In this document: one piece after another, positions 11,603 to 24,487 of the stretch
Layout: each line of letters starts with the position of its first letter
How positions within the stretch are numbered: position 1 is the first letter of the stretch
Translations under genes and position numbers: made by a program
Assembly (NCBI GenBank): GCA_046563655.1
Contig: CM102284.1
Location: 1,860,001 to 1,924,000 of the forward strand
Origin: Yuukianura sp. NJ FZ-2021
Taxonomy: Eukaryota
Direction of reading: 5' to 3'
DNA length: 64,000 nucleotides
The notes under the pieces: generated by a model
What the model was told of the DNA's origin: nothing
The model's input: the letters and a program-made list of their open reading frames with translations, nothing else
Databases searched by the model: none

Positions 11603-13415
11603 CTAGCGTCTAAATGTGAGTAGCAAATCGGCTAGCCTGAGTACCATAAATTGACACAATGAAGGGAATGTTTCTCTTGAGACTGAATGTGTAACTACGG
11701 AAACTGCAAGTGGCCTGATAGTTCTGGACATTTTGTTATAGTAGGAGTGATTGCGTCTGTGCTGGGATTTAACCCTGCCGAATTCCATCCGATACACCAG
11801 TGAAGATGAGTACAACTGCGCCGGGAAGGTGCAAGTTTCTTGGAGCATGGACAGACCTACTACGTTTAAAGCAATTCCGCTCAGGGCCATTATGAATCCA
11901 AAATACTCGAAGCAGTAGACGAAACCAAATGCAAGCAATGGGAGGAGGCTCGTCACTTCGTACATGAATATTGCCGACCAGTTTTGAAGGTCACATGAAA
12001 TACGGTTTACCACGACCTGCAACGCACGGTATAGCAATGCCTTCTGCTCAGGCTGATTCCACATGTCGGTTGCTTCCGAGCGACGTCTGTATTGAAAGTT
12101 CAAAGTTACTTAGAGGTATGGGTGTAAATCCGGATATAAATCCGGATTTTTGACGGATTCGGATTCTTCTATAAATCCGGGTTTCAAAAAAATGGAATCC
12201 GGATTTTGACGGATTTTTCGATCCATTTGAGGCTACGAACAATTGAAAAATAGACGTCAAAAACTAACAAATTGAGTTTAAATAAAAAATGTTTTTCAAA
12301 TTAAGTTAAATCAAAAAGTAACATTCCTGATGTCCACAATCAACTTTTTTCGGTACTTGGAGTTTAAAACCAACGTTGTTCATAATTTTGAAAAACTAAA
12401 AAAAAATCTTATGGGAAATACAATGTATTCTGAAATCCGGATTTAAATCCGGATTTTTTAATAAAAATCCGTCAAAATCCGAAATCCGGATTTCGAGAAA
12501 GCCGTGACGGATTTACACCCCTACTTAGAGGTCAACGACCTTTGAATATACTTACTGCAGTATACCGCAATATATACTTACCGCAATTGGTCCAGAATGT
12601 TACAGCACCAGTTTGGAATTACAAATAGGTAGAAGATGTGAGCAAAACAGTAGAGGTCGAGGACAGCCACCATTGACTGGGTCATTGTAAGAATGAATAT
12701 GCCTATAACGGAGTTGTATTCAAAAAAGGCGCCAAACATTTGTTGCAACTTAACGAATGCTGGAATTTCACGTTCCATGACCATGCCAGTCAATGCCATT
12801 GGCATTGCAAGTGCTCCGAAAGCTCCTATGAATGTTGCTCGTTCCAAAAATGTTTCCAGCCCGTCCTTTTCAGAAAAATTCCATCCGTACACATTTTCTT
12901 GGAAGAAGAGAAAATGAAAAGTTTATGAATTCAAACTTTTTAGTATACTTTAAGCATTGCGTATGTTTTAGTATTTATTTGTTTTGAGAGTGAATACCTA
13001 AGCATGACATCAACTCTGAAAGATTTTGTAACAAGTGGTATGTCAAGTTCCGATACTTGAAAGTGAATATTTGAAGAGAAGTACAAACGCCAATGAACGA
13101 TACAGCTACGGCTATGAATGCTCTATTGTGCGGGTTTGAATTCGGACCGATCTGCCCATAGCGTACCAAGAACGTAATAAATGAGCAGTGAAATAAAATT
13201 AGTGCCATCATTCCACAGAAGGAAATCCATTTTCGGTATTTCGTGCTGGGCAAAATTTTAATTGTACAGGTTGGATGACCATTGACCTCTTTGCTCTTTT
13301 TTGGGTTTTTGGTTGTAATAGGATGGGCTACTAACATAACCTTGAAAGGTGAAATGCATGTGTAGTAGCCAATATTCAGAATATTTTTGAGCCAAATAAG
13401 AGTAAACGTAGACAT
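11603..13415 (-). CDS. Gustatory/odorant receptor-like multi-TM chemoreceptor (405 aa, 3 exons)
   Basis: Exons 12998-13415, 12582-12897 and 11603-12086 join in frame. About seven hydrophobic segments, and a C-terminus RPLAVSV...RETFPSLCQFMV..LADLLLTF resembling the hexapod GR/OR last-TM region. Confidence 0.7.
12117..12523. mobile_element. hAT-type MITE (407 bp) in chemoreceptor intron 2
   Basis: TIRs tatgggtgtaaatccg / cggatttacaccccta (1 mismatch). Perfect 8-bp TSD cttagagg at 12109-12116 and 12524-12531. Multiple subterminal aaatccgga repeats. Confidence 0.92.
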
Positions 13416-14369
13416 TGTTAAAATTTGATCTCAAAGCTTCATATTTTCCAAAGGTGTTCCGTATGAATACGTGGTTACCATTTTGATAACTGAATGCTTG
13501 TGATTAGGTTGTATTCTACTTTTGCTAGATGTTTATTCAAAATGACCAAAAACAAGAAAGTGACTTTAATATGTTACATGGAAAAGCATTTCGGGTATTG
13601 CGGTTCTTTAAATTTTTTGTTGTCAAAATACTTTTATTTTTAAAGTTGACGTTGGTGTGCTCCTTTAAGCAAAAGTAAGCAAACATTTTCGTGTGTTATA
13701 CTTTGTGATATTGATTCTTACTTACTTTTTCATGGGTAAATTCCGAGGGTTATGTATTGTTTTTTCGCCTCAATGTAAAATTCAAAAATGTTCTTAAAAT
13801 GCAATTCATGTTCATGATAGAAATACCGCAAAATATCAACTAAATAATGCTCTATTTTATTGAACTCTTTTTAGAATTTTCAAATTCTCGTCCCTCCGGT
13901 GTCTTTAAAAATTAATGTTTTCTTCTTTTTTTTATGGCCTTTTTTTCTGTCAACTGTGACCTGACCGACGGAAAACAGCCTTTCATGAGAACAAAAAAAA
14001 TGTTTCATTTCCTTAAAATAATTTTTCGTGGGAATATTTTTTGAATTTGGTTTAGAATGGTTTGAAAATTTAAGCGAAATGCAAACATTGATTTAATTTA
14101 TTAATTTAATCTAAGGTCAAATTAGTCTTGAATGTCTTTTTCCATATAGTTCCGTAATTAATTAACTATAAATTCCAATGTTTAATCCCACTATGACCTA
14201 CTTTGTTAAGTAAAAATTTCGCAATTTTTTTGGTGGATGTTCAATGCTTGAATACTATTACTTAGTTTAGTACTTACTTACTAAAGTGTTACGGTCGAAG
14301 ATTGATCAAGACAATAAATTAGATATGCTCACAAGTTATTCGAAGAGTTATTTCGAAACTTTCTTGAAT

Positions 14370-16249
14370 TTATGCTAATTCGTCGTCCATACAAACTGGG
14401 AATCCGTTGATTTCAGCGCAGTGTTGCAGCGGAGCGCAGTCTTCGGCTGTAGAACAGACGCAGTAGTCTTGAAGTGCACAATGTGTAACACTAGGATCTC
14501 GGTCCTGCGCATCAGAAATCCCGAGCATGCGCCGTCCAAATGCATTTAAAAACAAACCTTCAGGGTCGTACGTATTCATGGCAGAAATGAACTGCAGGCG
14601 GTTTGGCGTCGTCGTGGAAATGACATCGGATGAGAAATAGTGCAGCCCGTTTTTGGACCAAGCCGGACGTCCGCCGTAATTCGTCACCTTAAAGAAATTT
14701 TGGACAATTTTTTTTTCAAAAGTTAAAAGAAAACTTGCGTATTTCGAAAGCGAAGAGTCTCACCATTTCTTGGAGAAGGGCTTGGTAAGTTCCAACAGCA
14801 TCACGTGAAGTATTAAACGGGTCTTTACGCATGGGCGTCACCAGTTCCACAGTGAACGATGCTCTCCCATATGAAATGGCCATTGTTGCCGGTGACTCCT
14901 TCGTAAACCTAATGTAAATTCCAACAAGAGGGAACGCTGCTGGGTGGAGGTCAATGACCTCACGCATCATTTTTATGACCCCAGTGAATTCGGCAAGGTC
15001 AAATGAAATTGCACTTTCTTCTTGGTACACCGACTCTTCTCCATTTTCCCATCCACATCTCACAAGTCCTCCACTGCTACACATATTCGTTTGTAATCGC
15101 CATGCGTAACCCGTAGCCGGATTCAACACTGTTTCACCGTTTTCGGTAAAAATTGGCGGTTTGCCTGTCACTTCAGTGTAGAGCGACTGTTCAGCTTGGT
15201 CAGCCAATCCCTCCAGCGCTTCCGTATTTCGCGTTTCTTGAAGAAGTTCAAAAGTGGCGCTTCCAGCGCTGATCAGCACAACATTCGTGTCTGGAATGAA
15301 GTTGGTGTAGGCTTGTCCTGGAGTGTCCACGGAGACATACACGCCTTTTCCGACGACAACGTGACTTGACTGTGGAAACCACCAGAGGTCGTAGATGTCA
15401 TAGTTCGCTGCTTCGGCTACAGCAGATCCATCAAAAATGATTGTATCCTCGGACAAAGTGTGTTCTTTGGTCATTTTGAAAAGCGGGACAGTTTGAAATG
15501 TCACGTCGACGATGATACCGAGCAGTCCCAAGTGAACACGGAACAGGTTAAGCTCCGGTCCAGAAATTTCGACAAGCGTGCCGTTGCCTATAATGACGTT
15601 CATACGTACCACTTGATCTGACATAGACGGATGATTCAGGGAAGACAAGTACGAACCGGTCGCAATCACTCCACCCATGGTAAGGCCACCTTTGACAAAA
15701 ACAAGCCAAATTTTCAAAGTTTTCTCAAGAATTCAATTTTTTTTAGATTCCAAAATTTCAGAAAAAAAAAGTGGAAGTACCAAAAGTTGGGACTGCAATG
15801 AGCGACAATCCGTTGGTTTCAAGAAACTCGAGAGCAGAGTACAACGTTTTTCCGGCACCGAATGTCACTGTACCGTCCGAATTGATTTGCGCATAATCAA
15901 AATTTTCCATTGAAATCGGAATTCCATCGGTACAGATCAAGTCAGTGAGGGAACCTAAACCGCCAACGGCTTTTACCGTTTGACCTTGACTGATTGCATC
16001 TTGAATGATTTGCTGTAGGGCTGGCAAATCGGCGGGAGTTTGAATTTCAGTTGCTGGATTGCAGTAAATCGTAGTCTGGTAAGATCTGTACTCTCCTAAT
16101 ACGACATTGTCAATGCTGAAAATGAATAGAGTGTAAAATATAGCATTAGTAAAAAAAATACAGTCGTTTTACCGTAAAACTCCAAGGAATACAAAGAAGG
16201 TGCTGAATGTTCTCCAATTTCTGTATTGAGAGTACGAAGTCATCTTCAT
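14370..16249 (-). CDS. L-gulonolactone oxidase-like FAD-linked oxidase (VAO/ALO family), plant-GulLO-like C-terminus (551 aa, 4 exons)
   Basis: Exons 16173-16249, 15781-16115, 14764-15689 and 14370-14687 join in frame. Motifs VKAVGG, GLTMGGVIATG, VHLGLLGIIVDVTFQ, DLWWFP, YIRF, GGRPAWSKN, YDPEGLF and CALQDYCVCSTAEDCAP. Hydrophobic N-terminal segment. Confidence 0.85.
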
Positions 16250-17682
16250 TGGTAAACATTGACCGCAAGTTGAAGTAAAAAAGAATCGCTTATAATACTG
16301 AACTAGCGTTTTAAATAAATGATGATTTCAGATTAAATCAGTACTCGATTCGTGGGATAAGCACTTACGATTTTGGAGAAATGCGCTAATAGTATTGAAA
16401 CATCCAGAAAATATTAGATTGTAGTGTTCTTTTTTTTCCCTTGAACGCAGTTAGGTTTCAGTAATCAATTTGCGAGTATTTTGAAAGAACTTTTATGATA
16501 AAACGGAATTATCAAAAACAAAATAATTCATCTAGTACATAACTTGCCAATGATGCCATCCATTTGATAATGATAAGTTTAAACTCTTTTAAGATTTATT
16601 TCCCAACGTATTAGAGAGTTATCCTGGTTTACTTTTAGTTAGTAGAAGTATTTTAATATCCTACTTAATTTTATTTTAAAATAAACCTTTATTTAAAATA
16701 TGAAAAAAGGAGATTCCAATTTAACTATGTTTTCAGTTTCTGTCTCAGTCAGTTGAAGAATAATGCTGTACCTCAGTTATCCTATTCAGCTTTTCAATTT
16801 AATGTAAAAGATATAAGAACTAGTGTAAGAATACAGTCGAGTTTCCCTTTTATTCCATTTGCCAAATACAAAACAAAATACAATTGAGAAGTACAAAACT
16901 CGCACCCGTACATGGGCGGTGAACTGGCAAAATGAAACGCCAAATGGCAAATTGGGGAATTGCCAATGACAATTTGACTTCAGACTCATGTAATTTTCTA
17001 ACCCCAGTGTAGTCCAATTGCAATTTGTTTTGTATTTGGCAAATGGAATAAAAGGGAAACTCGACTGTATCGTGTTCCTCATCTCTTATCTGCGTTTTTA
17101 GATGAAGAAGCGGGAAAAAATTGGAGGGTTTTTGTAGCAAAGTGGTTGAAAAACGGCACTATTAGCTCCTTTGTATTACGCAGTGCAAAACGGGTCCCAC
17201 CAAGTGAATTTATCTCACGATGTCATTATAATCTCTACCAGATACCAGATCAATGGCTGTGCTCTTTCGTACAAGAAAACTCTTGTTTGTTCTCAGTATT
17301 CTTTGCCCCCCCCCCTCCGCCGCACCTCACGGGCACCAAACGCTATCCACAAGGCAATAGGGCGATACTATCCCTTAGGTAGTGCCGGATGTATCATCTA
17401 ACCTAGCCTAGCCACCTATGTATGTGGTCGTGTAACGGTGTAACTACCAAAAATTATCAAATATGTTTTGTATTCATCCTTCACAACAACATAACATCGA
17501 ATTATAAATTAATAACCTACTGAGGTTACATTGAATGGTTCCAAGAGATGCAAAGATGCCTGCTTCCAACCAAATTGTTTACCTTTTCGAGGACTTTTAA
17601 TTTTTATCAGTAACGTCTGACATCAGTTAATTTAAGCGTTAAAGTTACAGATTCAGGGCCGCTTTGTTTGTTGTGACGTGCG

Positions 17683-18940
17683 ATGAGTGCCAGTGGTGAG
17701 GTGCAGGAGAAATGGAACTTGACCAAAGTTCATGAAATATCCAAGGACGATGTGAAACTCCGCAATTTTTTAGAGGCTAGGAATTTCCTGCCGAAGGAAC
17801 GTGCTTGTAACAAATGTGGACGGTTGATGATACAGTCGGTCACAGAGGGTTCTTGGAGATGTCGTGGGAAAATCGTTCGTCATAAACAGAAGGCGAAATA
17901 CTGCAGTTATAGTCAAAGTATATGGAAAGGAACGTTATTTTCCAAGACGAAGCTGTCCAAGCCGATGGTGCTCAAGTTGACGTACATGTTGGTCCGGAAT
18001 CATTTAAAGGACGACATTGATCACGAACTGATGGAGAATAACAAGCAACTTTCCTCTTCAACCATCACAAACTGGAGGAGACTTGTGAAAAAGGTTATGT
18101 TAATGTCGCTTTTCAACACTAAATGAAAGTATCAACCTAACGATGCCTAATAAAATCTTGTCTAATGCGAAATGTCTTATGTATTTCCCGTTACAGGTAA
18201 TGGAAGGTTGGGCAATAACATGTTCGGAGCGGATCGGAGGACCTGGAAAAGTTGTTCAGATTGAAGAATCACAGGTCGTAAACCGGAAATACATCAAGGA
18301 TTATCGTAAGAAACAACGTGTCGCCAATGCCGAGGATCAGTGGTTCTTTGGAGGAGTCGAACGTGATTCTGGCAAGGTATTTCTCGTGCCACTGGAGAAA
18401 AGGGATGCTAACACATGGATTTCCATCATAAAGGAGTGTGTTCTTCCCGGAACGATGATTGTTTCAGAGTGTTGGAACGCTTACCATAAACTGGGCCGTG
18501 AAGCGTAAGTAAAACAAAACGAACTTCATAAGAACCCACTAACTAATGAAAGATTGGTACAAAATTATTGCAGATATGAACATCTGACGTTGAATCATTC
18601 GGTAGAATTTGCTGAGCGTGGTACTAAGGATACTACAAAATCAACTGAGACTGCTCCGCACCATGACAAGAGGGTTATGCCAAACTATGACAAGGCAAAG
18701 GCAAATTATCCAGGTTACTTGGTACATTCCATGTTTTTGAATTGGTGCCAGGCAAACAGTGTTGATCCTTTCGAAAAGTTTTTGGACGAAGTCAGTCACA
18801 GGAATATGGACATCGTCCACGAAGAATTGAATGAAATTGACGATGAGGAGGTCGAGAAAGAAGATTTGACTGAGAGCTATGAAGTGGTGGAAGTGAAACC
18901 CGACGTAAAATTTCTCCTTGGTGGGACGTTCCTTGACTAA
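17683..18940 (+). CDS. Merlin / IS1595 (ISXO2)-like transposase-derived gene with degenerate DDE motifs (361 aa, 3 exons)
   Basis: Exons 17683-18093, 18197-18504 and 18574-18940 join in frame. Zn ribbon CNKC..WRC..C. Motifs IGGPGKVVQIEES, QWFFGGVER, RDANT...IIKECVLPGTMIVSECWNAY and YEHLTLNHS. AATAAA at about 19045. No TIRs seen. Confidence 0.85.
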
Positions 18941-19709
18941 AATTTAATTGTCTTCTGTACACGCGTTGAAAGACGTATTCATTACGTTTTTGTTTAGCAT
19001 ATAATAACTTTACGAAGAAGATTTTGTACTTTTTGTAAACAGAAAATAAATATTTTTTTATATTAATTCTCGTTAAGATTGTTTAACTTTTTTTTACTTG
19101 AACCTTTGCTCGAGTAGAAACAAAGAATCAACACGTTTACACAAAAGCGTTGTGCTAATAATGAGTTCAGTGTTAAAAAAATCCCCAAACGTTGTGTAGT
19201 ATCGGTTCACATAACATTGTACTACACTTATTAGTAGCTATTCAACCAAACAAAATTTCCGGTATTCCGGAGATTTACCAGTATCTCATCAAGAATTTTA
19301 CAAAATTCGCATTTGAGGGTCGTCGCACAATTCGCAAACATTTTACAATTGGAAAGAGAAATTGTGACTTCTGGCATAATGCGCCAGGGTAGTCAGAGTA
19401 TTAGTGCAGCCCCAAACGGGTTGTGTTTAGTACACTTTTCTAAAAAAAAATCACGTCACGGTAAAGATTTCATGAATACATTTCAATTTTTCCTTATTTA
19501 CTAAAATTCCAATTATTGAAACGCTGATAATTTCTTGTTATTAATTTACTATATAATACTGTTCTACGAAATTGCTGGAATCTAAGTGACAATTTTGGGT
19601 TTTCGATAAGTTTGTTGTTTACGTTGTTGTAAGTTGTCCAATATATTGAAATGAACCACCGAACTATGCAAATGCATTTTGATTTTTTAGATTGTTTGCA
19701 TAGTACGAC

Positions 19710-22700
19710 ATGGTGACTGCTGTTCTTCCGGAAGGTTACAAGTACCTTGTTGAGGAGGAAAAGTTTTCATCTACTACGAACTACGAATGTAGCCTCCGAA
19801 TTCGGGGAATGAAGACTGAAGAAGATGCCCGAGTAAGTTATCCGGTAATACCGGTACCGGTTGAATTAGTACTTGAGCTATGTTTGTTTTGTGCATTTTA
19901 CGTAACCGTTGCGTTTGTATATGCCCTGTGGAAACAACTTGTTACTAATTCCTCTTTTATACCCATTACGCCAAGTGAAACATGTTTTGTTTTGTTTTTT
20001 ACGCAGAAGTGGATAGAAAGCTTGAACGAGTGCAGCTTGGTAACCTGGAAAGTGCTGCGGACATATCCAAACAGCGGGAAAATAAACGTGTATAAAGGAG
20101 AATTCCGGTGTCAGCATCGTGTTCATGGAAAACGCAAGGATATCAAAAAGAGCAAGAACACCAATTGCCCGGCTCGACTTCGCGTATGTATTCGAAGGTG
20201 GGGAAGCAATGACAGCTTTTATTGTCATTTTGTAAATTAATTCCGCTTTTCTCGTTGTGTCGTTTTCAGGTATCTTAAATCTAGCAGTGCAAAGGCGCCA
20301 GGTAAGCCAGGAATCGTACCTACCTTGAACTCCCATTATAATAAGGGGACGACTACACCTGTTATCATTGATATATTTCAGATCCGTTGAACAAGTTGTG
20401 GCCTTGTATTGTTGAGTTAAAAAATACGCATAACCATGCAGTTGAATCAGCTGATTCACTTCAATATCGACCCGTCAATGATGCCACACGTAAGAAAATC
20501 TGTGACCTCTTCCAACTCGGACACTCTCCACAATCTATTACGGAGTCTCTGCGTCTCGACCTCCTCATTGACAGTCCAGACATGTATGAGGAACGGGAAA
20601 ACGATGCTTCGTACTGTCCCTTATCAGGATTTTGTTACCGCGAGTACATTCGGTCTTTTGGATACAGTTATCGGTATGAAATAACAAGTTTTGTGATACA
20701 AGTCGTGAAACCAGGATCTGATTTCCAGATTCTAGAAAAATTTTGTTTCCAGAGGGCGGCTGAGGAGTTCGTTACAAAGTGAACTCGAATCGCTTCTCGG
20801 ACCTTACATCAACGACAACGCTGGAGGTCGAGCCGTGATGTCTAGTGTTTCAGATCACCTCGTCGTGTGCATTTGTACTCCCATCATGCAAAATATTCAC
20901 TGCCATGTTCCTGAATCACGAAGTGTTGTCCACGTCCAAGTCTTTGGTCACCCGGATAAAAAGATAAGACTTTTTCTATTCTCAACATGGATTTCCATTG
21001 GAGAAGTTCCTCTTGGTGTAGTGCTGACTGATACCGAAGAACCCGAAGTTTTTGTAACCGGACTCCAGTTACTGAGAAGTATTCTTCCTTCCGGGTCGTT
21101 TTTTGGATCCAACTGGCCAGAAGTATTTGTTCTTCCAGACGACGATCCCAGAAGAAAGTTAGCAATGGAACAGGAGTTCCCATTTTCAATCATCCTTACA
21201 TCAAAAACTCATCAGCTGAGACGATTTCAAGATTTTTTAAATGAACCGCAAAATTCAATTCCTAAGGAATTTCATGCCGACTTGTTCAGAAAGTTTAAAG
21301 TGATGCTCAACTCACGGCCGGATGAATTGCTTACAAACTTTGAAAACGTAACGAACCATTCGGAACTCATCGAGAAGAAGTCGGGGCAACCCCAGCTTAG
21401 TGCATTCATGACTCAATTGTGGATGGACACCAATGGCTTTGCACATGTTGACAGACCTGGCATATTTTTAAATCCGCCCAGTGAATGTGCAGCTCCTGAA
21501 GGTGCCCAGATTCTCTCCCGCCTAATTTTGAATGAACTTTTTGACCGAGTCAAGTCCTTCAACCTTGTGCAACTTTCACATTTTATTATCCAAAATTTCG
21601 AAGAATTTTTGCGAAAACGTCTGAAAATGCCGTCATATACTGAATCCATGTTAAAAATCATCTTACCCAGCAAGGGCTCCACCAATTTATACAAAGTCAA
21701 GAAACTTGAAGACGGATTCTTTGAGGTTCCGGGTGACGACGGACCTGCTTTTGCCGACATGGATCTTCTACGCTGTTCATGTCAAAGGTCACGGTGTGCC
21801 CATTTGTCTGCGGTGATTCACAAATTCTATTCCACCAACATTCCATATCCGGTTCATCTCCAAGAACTTTACATTGACCTTGCTGGAGGAGACAGAAGTA
21901 GTATCATCAAAAGCAGTGGAAAAAGAAAACCGGTTACGCCAGTACTTCTTCCCAAACTTAAAAAGAACAAACTCACAACAGGTCAGTGTAAACTGTTGAG
22001 TTGATTCTAAAAAATGCATTTGTTTCATGTGGGTGAGGGTTGAGGGAGAATTTCGAATTTCGCAATTGTAAAATTTTGAATTTTGCAATTGCCAAGAATT
22101 TCGCAACTGCAATTTCGCCAATCCCATATTCCGAATCCCGGAAGAATTTCTTTTCTCTGCACTTTCACGTTTTTCGAACATTAATTTTTTTTTCTTTGCT
22201 ATTTCAGAACCAATTATCAAAGTTGAAAATGATCAGCAAGAATTTAATGAAGAAGGACAGGGGCTGATTGCAGAAATTTCCGATTGGTTACGACTTCAAG
22301 TTTCGAAGAATCCGAAGCGGTTTTTACCAGCACTCAAAGCCATGGCTCGGAAAGTCGAGTCAATGGATTCTGAAGCTGAAGCAGCAGCGGCCGTAGCAGC
22401 ATTCGGTTCATTCCCAAAGCCAATCCAAATCCGAAATACTCAAAACACAACGCCCGTTGTCAAGGATCCACTTCGACTTCAACAGACGCTGATTACGACT
22501 TCGCAAGTACTGGAACTTGAACAAGAAGATGTTGGATTCATACCGACACTGGACCAGCGTGGAGACGACCTGTTGGCGGGAATTTCAAACACTGCGACTT
22601 ACATACCACTCCAAGAAGTTCCTGGAGAAGATGGAAATCCTTCGTACTTTATACTCGTTTCAGAAGGAGATGAAACCATGAAGGGGCTGTTTGGCGGCGC

Positions 22701-22863
22701 AGGCGTAGTGGAGGAAGTCGTTCCGGTCATCTCTGCTGTCCAAAATTTCAAACCAGCTTCTCTTCCAATTTCAGTCGTAACGAAGCAAAAATCGATCATA
22801 AAAGCCTCAACTACTAAAAAGCAGCAGCAGGAACAGGAACAAGTTGTTAGGCTGTTGGCATAA
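19710..22863 (+). CDS. MULE/Mutator-like transposase-derived gene with SWIM zinc finger (6 coding exons)
   Basis: Exons 19710-19832, 20007-20197, 20270-20300/1, 20382-20673, 20753-21981 and 22208-22863 join in frame. FRCQH...KNTNCPARL...HNH (WRKY/GCM1-like DNA-binding domain), VPLGVVLT, PEVFVLPDD, FDRVKSFNLVQL, SWIM-like CSC...CAH. Probable 3'UTR intron at about 22876-22942. Confidence 0.8.
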
Positions 22864-23380
22864 ATAACCTAAAAGGTAAGTTGTAAGTTAACTATTCTAA
22901 CAATTTTAAATGCCAAGTTTTGAATTACTTCTGTTTTTCTAGATTGTGATTGAGAAGCTCCGAGTGACGACGTGACTCGTAGTACATGAGTGACATCAAA
23001 TACGTGACTACGCATGTCCGAATAAAAAATGGACTTTGATGACACAAAATCAACTGCCTAATCTGACTCATTTTGAGTTGATTATTGATGACAGGGAAAT
23101 GAAAATTGTAAACCCAGAGGGAAAGGTGGAGGAGGCGTGGTTACCTCCCTTACCAGGTTAAGAGGTTACGCTTCATTTGAATAACGCGGAAGATGCTTCC
23201 ACATCCACGCTTTATTTTGTTTCCTCTTTGTCTCAACTTGCCCCATCAACACAAAAGTTACGTAACTTTACGGGCTTTGGGCTTTGTTCTTTAAGATTGG
23301 AGAAACACATAAGTTATGGTGGTGTTATGGCTTATGGTAGACCGGTTTGTAAATTGGTTAGGTTAGGATGGACGAAGGCT

Positions 23381-23388
23381 TATAAAAA
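23381..23388 (+). promoter_or_regulatory. TATA box of the GWQ-repeat gene
   Basis: TATAAAAA about 130 bp upstream of the ATG at 23513. Confidence 0.55.
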
Positions 23389-23512
23389 GACTTGACAAGA
23401 TCCACTAATTACAACATTCGTTTTTTGTGAGTCTGCGATTAACTACAAAGGAAGTTTTTTTGTGAATCAAAAGTTTAGTTTGACTCAAAAAGTTATTTTT
23501 TTGTGACTCAAA

Positions 23513-24487
23513 ATGAATATTATTCTGTATGGAGCTCTGCTACTCCTCAGCGTCGTCTTAGCCTTGTCACTTGCAGGTAAATTTCTACTTTTTCAAAAGC
23601 CAAGAACAAAATTTTAGAAAAATTTTGAACCTGAAATGTTGGTAACTGCAAATTATTGAAAGAAAATTTTTTAATAAAGTTGTGTTTGAAAAAAATTAAC
23701 AAATATTTGTTGTGATTGTTAAACTGTCAGCGTGTAAGCACCTTTTCGTGGTTGTAAAAAAAACCAAACAAGTTTACAACTATTAAAATCACTTACTTTT
23801 CCACTTAACAAACATTGCCGTGCGGTAGGTAACAAGTTGAAGCAAAACGGCGAACGCAGTGTTGTAATTTTCTGGTTAGGTGAATCGTTACCTACTAATT
23901 TTCTATGCATAAGCATTTCATTTCGTCTTTTCCAAAAATTTTCAAAATTTCGTATTTTATTCTAAATATGGTTTGTTTTTCAGAAGAAAGAGCCCAATTC
24001 GTACCGGAATCCCAATACGATGGAGCCGTAGTCGATCCATCTACTGGAAAACGAACGAAGCGATACGCATCTCTCGCTTTTCTTACGGGAGTAGCAGGTG
24101 AGCAAACACAATTTTCCAAAAAAGTTTCAAAATTTTGAAATTTTTGTTGTTTAGTTATATAAAATACTGCTTATACAAATATTAATGGTTTACATTTTAT
24201 CATGTAAAGCTGGTGGCATCTTTGGACCAATTTTGTACAACCGACTGTACGGATGGGGCCGTAGCCGCGGAGGGCCCAGGATCGTCTTCTACAAAGGCTG
24301 GCGACCAGCTCAATCCGGATGGCAACAGGAAAGTTCTGGATGGCAACAAGAAAGCTCTGGAGGATGGCAAGAGGAAGAACAGTCGCAAGGATGGCAACCA
24401 GAACAATCATCCCAAGGATGGCAACCAGTTGAGCGGCCAAGCCAGGGGTCGGGGTGGCAAAGCGGACAAAGTGGTAACCGATGGTAA
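23513..24487 (+). CDS. Secreted preproprotein with furin site and GWQ repeats (151 aa, 3 exons), cuticle/structural-like
   Basis: Exons 23513-23576, 23984-24097 and 24210-24487 join in frame. Signal peptide MNIILYGALLLLSVVLALSLA, then RTKR, a hydrophobic segment, and six GWQ repeats. Confidence 0.85.

Follow-up and report, generated by a model that had tools for sequence, protein, structure and literature searches.

A three-exon gene of Merlin/IS1595 transposase origin with an all-glutamate triad in Yuukianura sp., a candidate for young domestication

The window analysed here, a stretch of 64,000 nucleotides from Yuukianura sp. NJ FZ-2021 (assembly GCA_046563655.1, contig CM102284.1, positions 1,860,001 to 1,924,000), carries on its forward strand at 17683-18940 a three-exon gene which, judged from homology along its length, is derived from a full-length Merlin/IS1595 transposase and in which both catalytic aspartates are replaced by glutamate. 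Since the transposon ends are lost and both Asp residues are changed to Glu, the product is probably a transposase that the host has retained as a candidate DNA-binding protein. We favour the reading, at roughly even chances, that it represents a young and fast-evolving Merlin transposase that has been domesticated, or at least immobilised and maintained, and that would retain DNA binding with the loss of normal catalysis. Counted for domestication are the intact spliced reading frame, the E-E-E triad, the retention of the zinc ribbon and the core fold, the immobility of the gene and the presence of a colinear counterpart, as well as a frame that stays open when 5.1% of the possible substitutions in the coding sequence would create stops and a dN/dS of 0.39-0.51 among the listed variants. 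Counted against it are the lack of significance of this dN/dS, a divergence of 8.2% between two forms of the gene and the lack of any distant orthologue in exon-wise searches.

The gene is assembled from three stop-to-stop frames of the forward strand (17677..18126, 18104..18508 and 18509..18940), which are joined by two GT..AG introns into a coding sequence of 1086 nt, corresponding to 361 codons and a stop. Exon 1 (17683-18093, residues 1-137), whose first ATG is immediately preceded by an in-frame stop, translates without interruption into N-terminal helices, a four-Cys zinc ribbon (17806-17904, with C42, C45, C60 and C74) and a three-helix HTH-like module (17944-18093, residues 88-137) that is predicted to bind DNA. 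Intron 1 (18094-18196, 103 nt, phase 0) is followed by exon 2 (18197-18504, residues 138-240 with the final codon split), which encodes the first two thirds of the RNase H-like core, and intron 2 (18505-18573, 69 nt, phase 2) leads to exon 3 (18574-18940, residues 240-361 and the stop), which encodes the final third of the core together with a C-terminal acidic tail. Without splicing, the frames of exons 1 and 2 run into stops within a few codons inside the introns, that of exon 2 at once. Family homology is colinear without a gap at both junctions, which confirms the gene model, and on this alignment both introns are insertions relative to the family coding sequence rather than decayed coding sequence that has been skipped. 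The GT-AG joins and the colinear homology thus bear out the intact 361-residue spliced frame with two introns that had been proposed in a first-pass annotation. The length of the N terminus resembles that of relatives, with 42 residues ahead of the first Cys as in the relative P0004, and the frame is closed by a stop codon where relatives also end. A polyadenylation signal had been proposed too, and a candidate AATAAA does lie at 19045-19050, 105 nt past the stop codon, as the sole such hexamer within 18900-19400; since AATAAA is frequent on the forward strand of the window (59 copies, 0.92 per kb), this hexamer weighs little.

Membership in the Merlin/IS1595 family is carried mainly by a profile built from 48 full-length relatives, taken from exon 2 search matches of 290-400 residues. 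The spliced protein scores 271.6 bits against this profile (E 7e-85), and the alignment covers profile positions 5-324 of 356 and protein residues 8-339, gapless at either exon junction. Exon 2 alone matches Pfam PF12762 (DDE_Tnp_IS1595) with E 8.3e-6 and 26.3 bits, just below the cut-off of 27 because the exon spans only profile positions 9-93 of 153, and it matches NCBIfam NF033547 (transpos_IS1595) with E 1.4e-4 and 21.8 bits, the cut-off being 75. Exon 3 alone gave no Pfam match at E <= 1 save a chance-level DUF6606, and the Pfam Zn_Tnp_IS1595 model gave no match at E <= 1; the language-model features of exon 3 resemble those of IS1595 transposase fragments (0.93, 179 of 256 shared). The Merlin/IS1595 origin put forward in the first-pass annotation is therefore in agreement with both the PF12762 match and the profile score. 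The likeness to Merlin/IS1595 (ISXO2-like) transposases consists in the Cys ribbon, the helical domain, the RNase H-like core and the block motifs around the triad, in full-length colinear order. When exon 2 was searched against 1.84 billion cluster representatives, 2468 proteins were retrieved at E <= 0.001, including 374 at E <= 1e-10; the best single-stretch matches among these representatives are 42-58% identical and the closest ones are canonical, so that identity between Merlin representatives and the window gene over the core is at most 58%. The top representative matches, P0006 (1750 aa) and P0007 (1611 aa), match the Merlin core in 9 and 10 separate stretches, respectively, and are probably gene calls through tandem or nested Merlin copies.

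In the alignment to the 48 relatives, the triad of the window protein reads E160, E228 and E265 against the D-D-E of the family and of active Merlin elements, at columns that hold 85% D, 92% D and 83% E, respectively. E160 is encoded by GAA at 18263-18265 within VQIEES, E228 by GAG at 18467-18469 within SECWNAY and E265, at the position of the family catalytic Glu, by GAG at 18647-18649, and each of the two Asp-to-Glu changes amounts to one third-position transversion. The motifs VQIEES and SECWNAY were read correctly in the first-pass annotation and correspond to VEIDE. and SDCWKAY in the consensus of the family, while the third, TKSTETAP, aligns to HTN.IE..W. When the residues at both Asp positions were tallied over 163 BLASTP stretches from the 152 nearest database relatives, D/D was found in 135, E/D in two, D/E in one and E/E in none. 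The remaining 25 either fall short of one of these positions or show a gap or some other residue there, at one or at both of them; decayed relatives show N, G, Y, H, F or K in place of Asp. The replacement of both catalytic Asp residues thus stands, and where an intact DDE had been named as evidence to the contrary, the alignment gives E-E-E instead. The accompanying claim that the NxIE region is eroded was overstated, since the Glu itself is retained: within STETA, facing T.IE..W, both T261 and the catalytic-position E265 are kept, and the part that holds is the replacement of W, present in 85% of relatives, by P268.

Outside the triad, the protein combines retained structural elements with the loss of several family-conserved residues. 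All four ribbon cysteines are kept, at columns that are 75-90% conserved as Cys among the 48 relatives, in line with the intact zinc ribbon first described, and the fold-defining glycines are kept as well. With a conservation of at least 70% as the threshold, 47/63 columns are retained in the window protein, the non-conservative losses including G172D, L211W and W268P; with at least 80% it retains 33/42, which is the sixth lowest value of 49 proteins (median about 0.93). Four of the five proteins that score lower (P0144, P0083, P0114 and P0064) have mutated triads, and the column losses in such company fit a lost catalytic constraint. In a quick tree of the 49 proteins, the terminal branch of the window protein is the fourth longest (1.36 vs a median of 0.79) and its root-to-tip distance is ordinary (rank 20/49). 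An acidic tail with VKPD (18893-18904), four residues that fit the SUMO consensus, had been cited as a mark of a host protein, and both are indeed present in exon 3; however, acidic tails also occur in the canonical D-D-E relatives P0004, P0020 and L001, so that the tail is a family trait and not a host innovation or a mark of domestication. L001, the one relative among 131 pattern matches in metagenome contigs, is a canonical Merlin (VEIDES, SDYWKAY, HTNSIESTW) with a long acidic tail and an intron at another position. As introns and an acidic tail occur together in such a canonical relative, neither argues for host ownership.

Predicted structures were obtained exon by exon. The AF2 model of exon 1 (mean pLDDT 92.1, pTM 0.78) consists of two helices, a small ribbon with short strands at 50-52, 57-59 and 77-79, and a three-helix unit (93-104, 109-115 and 125-136). 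For this unit, weak matches were obtained among the domains with which Tc3, SETMAR, Mos1, Sleeping Beauty and resolvases bind DNA (Z 3.9-4.6 over 42-51 residues; 4.2-4.5 for SETMAR, Mos1 and Tc3), a likeness that may reflect a common fold only, and a Foldseek search of the exon 1 model against the PDB returned nothing at E <= 0.001, with kinases in the top rows (TM 0.15). The model of exon 2 (mean pLDDT 79.8) has the topology b1-b2-b3-a1-b4-a2 and finds its best matches in retroviral integrase cores (Z 8.2-8.4, rmsd 1.9-2.3 A, 68-69 residues); E160 is placed in strand b1 (exon 2 residues 19-27) and E228 directly after b4 (87-90).

Immobility is suggested by the surroundings of the gene. According to parts of PMC8101967, Merlin elements are characterised by terminal inverted repeats (TIRs), which measure 24-462 bp and have 5'-GG ends, and by target-site duplications (TSDs) of 8-9 bp, whereas the window gene has neither and is apparently single-copy. 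No inverted-repeat pair bracketing the gene was found in 15500-21000 or across the whole 64-kb window, and no target-site duplication was seen around it, so that the absence of TIR and TSD noted at first holds. The only pair that spans the gene (17441/19525, 19 nt, 79%) was rejected, being AT-rich, without a GG start and with flanks that do not repeat. A second copy is likewise absent from the 64-kb window, the best tblastn E value past self-matches being 3.9. Contigs of four public runs were also aligned to the window at 80% likeness or more, and in each run their summed depth over the gene bins, which is a hint and no copy number, falls among the values of the flanking genes. Some joints pass over 6.8-9.2 kb at the locus; an empty-site allele was considered for them, but their sides measure only 21-27 letters and they were taken as repeat artefacts. 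The gene thus looks single-copy among ordinary host genes, in a window of 38% G+C that is dense with animal-type genes carrying short introns.

Its neighbourhood contains further elements. The upstream neighbour on the reverse strand (14370-16168) matches FAD_binding_4 with E 2.1e-7 and ALO with E 6.7e-4, the latter below the cut-off, and on these matches looks like a gulonolactone/arabinonolactone oxidase. The downstream neighbour (19704-22863) lies on the same strand, begins about 760 nt past the Merlin-type gene and looks transposase-derived: it has no Pfam match at E <= 0.01, and its language-model features fall with MULE / ZSWIM1-3-like clusters, commonest in Arthropoda (0.95, 178 of 256 shared), and two different transposase-derived genes would thus adjoin here. 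Its segment 19973-21440 has about 8x the flank depth in a run under a second species label, where this gene may therefore be multi-copy. About 600 bp upstream of the Merlin-type gene lies a MITE of 240 bp (16831-17070) with terminal inverted repeats of 56 nt that are 96% complementary, its end reading TA followed by CAGTCGAG, and with a bin depth roughly 50x that of the flanks; from its TA-flanked CAGT ends it looks to be of Tc1/mariner type. Contigs of two runs skip 16590-17467, and this upstream region is thus polymorphic. Another MITE of roughly 400 bp (12118-12521) is GG-ended; it carries GGGTGTAAATCCG repeats at its termini and AAATCCGGATTT palindromes internally, and is flanked on either side by TACTTAGAGGT, a direct duplication of 11 bp. 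It was rejected as a Merlin-type target, as the duplication is 11 bp and not 8-9 bp, and presumably suits Mutator-like elements better than Merlin.

Five public runs were found for the window, none of them recorded as RNA, and counterparts of the gene were found among these runs. In one run under a second species label, the only further label in which a counterpart was seen, a contig that is about 92% identical spans 17890-19213, from which it differs by 109 substitutions and 30 gap letters, and contigs of similar depth, which are not joined together, tile both neighbours colinearly. A form diverged by about 8%, matching that of the second label, is also present beside the window form in the best-matching sample; the occurrence of the divergent form at this locus in both implies that the gene has been here since the forms split. 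In that sample at least two forms of the locus, about 8% apart and of about the same depth (137 of 257.7 at 17943-18056), are seen across 13000-24000, and 18208-18767 is also covered by a third form at a distance of about 2%; these multiple forms could stem from very high heterozygosity, from the pooling of individuals or from homeologous copies. As to syntenic orthologues and their dN/dS, which the first-pass annotation had named as a check, a colinear counterpart at about 92% is therefore at hand, but the selection signal is not significant. From 17 listed variants, which come from part of exon 1 only and may be a biased sample, 11.5 non-synonymous and 5.5 synonymous changes were counted, and among these variants dN/dS is 0.51 over 17791-18057 (Fisher p = 0.22) and 0.39 over 17890-18057 (Fisher p = 0.15). 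The replacements among the listed variants cluster in the ribbon loop, and in the helical domain at 17943-18045 six of the seven listed changes fall at third codon positions.

The same data are what the strongest alternative draws upon, namely that the gene is a dying solo relic from an extinct Merlin family of which no other copy survives, deprived of its ends and drifting near neutrality with a frame open by luck and noticed only for being open, which we consider the less probable explanation yet a serious one. Between the two forms the gene region has diverged by 8.2%, much as the mixed and intergenic sequence (7.5-7.7%) and about twice as much as the neighbouring coding exons (3.4-4.5%), which indicates that constraint is weak at best. 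Such a relic would also be in keeping with a dN/dS that is not significantly under 1, with the 33/42 conserved columns that rank the protein beside relatives with broken triads and with its long terminal branch. The searches for remote relatives, run exon by exon, point in the same direction: of 23 candidates among longer proteins for exon 2, two passed, both canonical D-D-E proteins and not orthologues; exon 2 gave no candidate orthologue among proteins of similar length; exon 3 yielded 0/81 among longer proteins; and no distant orthologue was thus found by these searches beyond the runs examined. Against mere decay, the frame of 361 codons and its four splice sites have stayed intact despite the 5.1% of stop-creating substitutions; neutral drift would leave the frame open in about 11% of cases at 4% divergence per lineage, or in about 1% at 8%, with indels and splice sites uncounted. 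Moreover, both Asp residues took the most conservative replacement, unlike the residues found in decayed relatives, the zinc ribbon, fold-defining glycines and core topology are kept, and the listed changes in the helical domain are confined with one exception to third codon positions. Taken together, the claim of a non-catalytic host protein keeps its footing as regards the Merlin origin, the full length, the missing TIRs, the two Glu residues and the colinear counterpart, and it falls short as regards purifying selection, for which significance was not reached.

A less probable explanation, and in our view an unlikely one, is that E-E-E forms a catalytic site after all. The protein would then be either a domesticated nuclease or recombinase whose metal geometry has changed, or a transposase that serves non-autonomous elements elsewhere in trans. 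In the DDE enzymes studied, replacing these Asp residues with Glu strongly lowers activity, as known from mutagenesis of integrases, of Mu, Tn5/Tn10 and of RAG1 enzymes. All three positions of the window protein are nevertheless acidic, with the family Glu included, and the predicted core fold would put both substituted residues at the canonical places, in b1 and after b4. Further, several proposed ciliate domestications of Merlin keep complete triads, as reported in parts of bioRxiv 10.1101/2021.12.14.471607. Such an enzyme is made doubtful by the lack of any E/E pair among the 163 relative stretches, by the P268 that replaces W beside the third motif and the loss of the near-invariant core residues in G172D and L211W. 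Merlin-type ends are also absent from the window, and the lone GG-ended MITE seen there carries the duplication of 11 bp. A specific variant, in which a host-kept Merlin enzyme, its metal binding re-tuned by the lengthening of both aspartates to glutamate, would carry out restricted cutting or nicking without full transposition, is held to be quite improbable. If the E-E-E site were nonetheless functional, no earlier natural triad of three glutamates would be known from a DDE/RNase H-like recombinase, and no earlier animal gene for a nuclease of Merlin origin.

That the gene model is wrong, the locus being unexpressed or otherwise spliced, for example within a longer transcript of the MULE/ZSWIM-like gene that follows about 760 nt downstream on the same strand, is very improbable, for although AATAAA is common in the window, homology to the 48 relatives runs colinearly through both junctions from residue 8 to 339, and the distance to the first Cys and the position of the stop agree with those of relatives.

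Returning to the favoured reading of a domesticated or at least maintained transposase, the gene can be set against known cases. Classical domesticated DDE transposases with altered triads include SETMAR, with DDN, and CENP-B and Jerky, which derive from pogo. With these the window gene shares a retained DNA-binding domain, catalysis that is altered or lost (as is predicted here), immobility and an apparently single-copy state, and its exon 1 helical module bears the weak likeness to SETMAR mentioned above. In contrast to them it belongs to another superfamily, has no fusion to a host domain and is apparently very young and taxonomically narrow.

Within the Merlin superfamily, domestication has been proposed for preserved ORFs without TIRs in Stentor, Symbiodinium and Perkinsela, some of them with a non-conserved DDE, in the parts of PMC8101967 that treat them. 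Parts of bioRxiv 10.1101/2021.12.14.471607 describe TIR-less IS1595-domain genes of Blepharisma with complete triads and developmental upregulation, and macronuclear IS1595-domain genes in Oxytricha as in Blepharisma. These protist candidates, as far as those sources describe them, resemble the window gene in a kept IS1595 DDE ORF, in the lack of TIRs and TSDs and in the ordinary genes close by. It differs from them in its animal-type genome, its spliceosomal introns, the change of both Asp residues to Glu and in having no connection with programmed DNA elimination; for the ciliate genes, mostly complete triads and upregulation are described there, in contrast to the E-E-E of the window gene. 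A full-text literature search, supplements aside, found no Merlin-derived host gene of an animal, and PMC5737618, considered as a relevant report, was set aside as the domain appears there just in a table row of small-RNA targets.

Under the domestication reading, a single immobilised Merlin transposase copy would have been kept by the host lineage, apparently an animal of arthropod type, as an ordinary three-exon gene. The two Asp-to-Glu changes would cripple cleavage and strand transfer, so that the ribbon and the HTH module would let the protein bind DNA sequence-specifically, with the core as a putative scaffold that supports multimerisation or contact with DNA. Its targets may be sequences resembling Merlin ends, on which it would act as a regulator or repressor, or it may have been recruited as a chromatin or transcription factor. 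Such a domestication would be young and fast-evolving and not old and conserved.

Although domesticated transposases as such are a familiar phenomenon, few candidates have come from the Merlin superfamily, those being proposed in protists in the parts of PMC8101967 and bioRxiv 10.1101/2021.12.14.471607 that bear on them. If selection and expression fail, the gene is merely a well-preserved relic. If the domestication is true, it would be a young animal case caught early, with its transposon architecture retained and no host fusion, and if selection and expression hold, it would represent a natural experiment in the switch-off of a DDE site with the fold and DNA binding kept.
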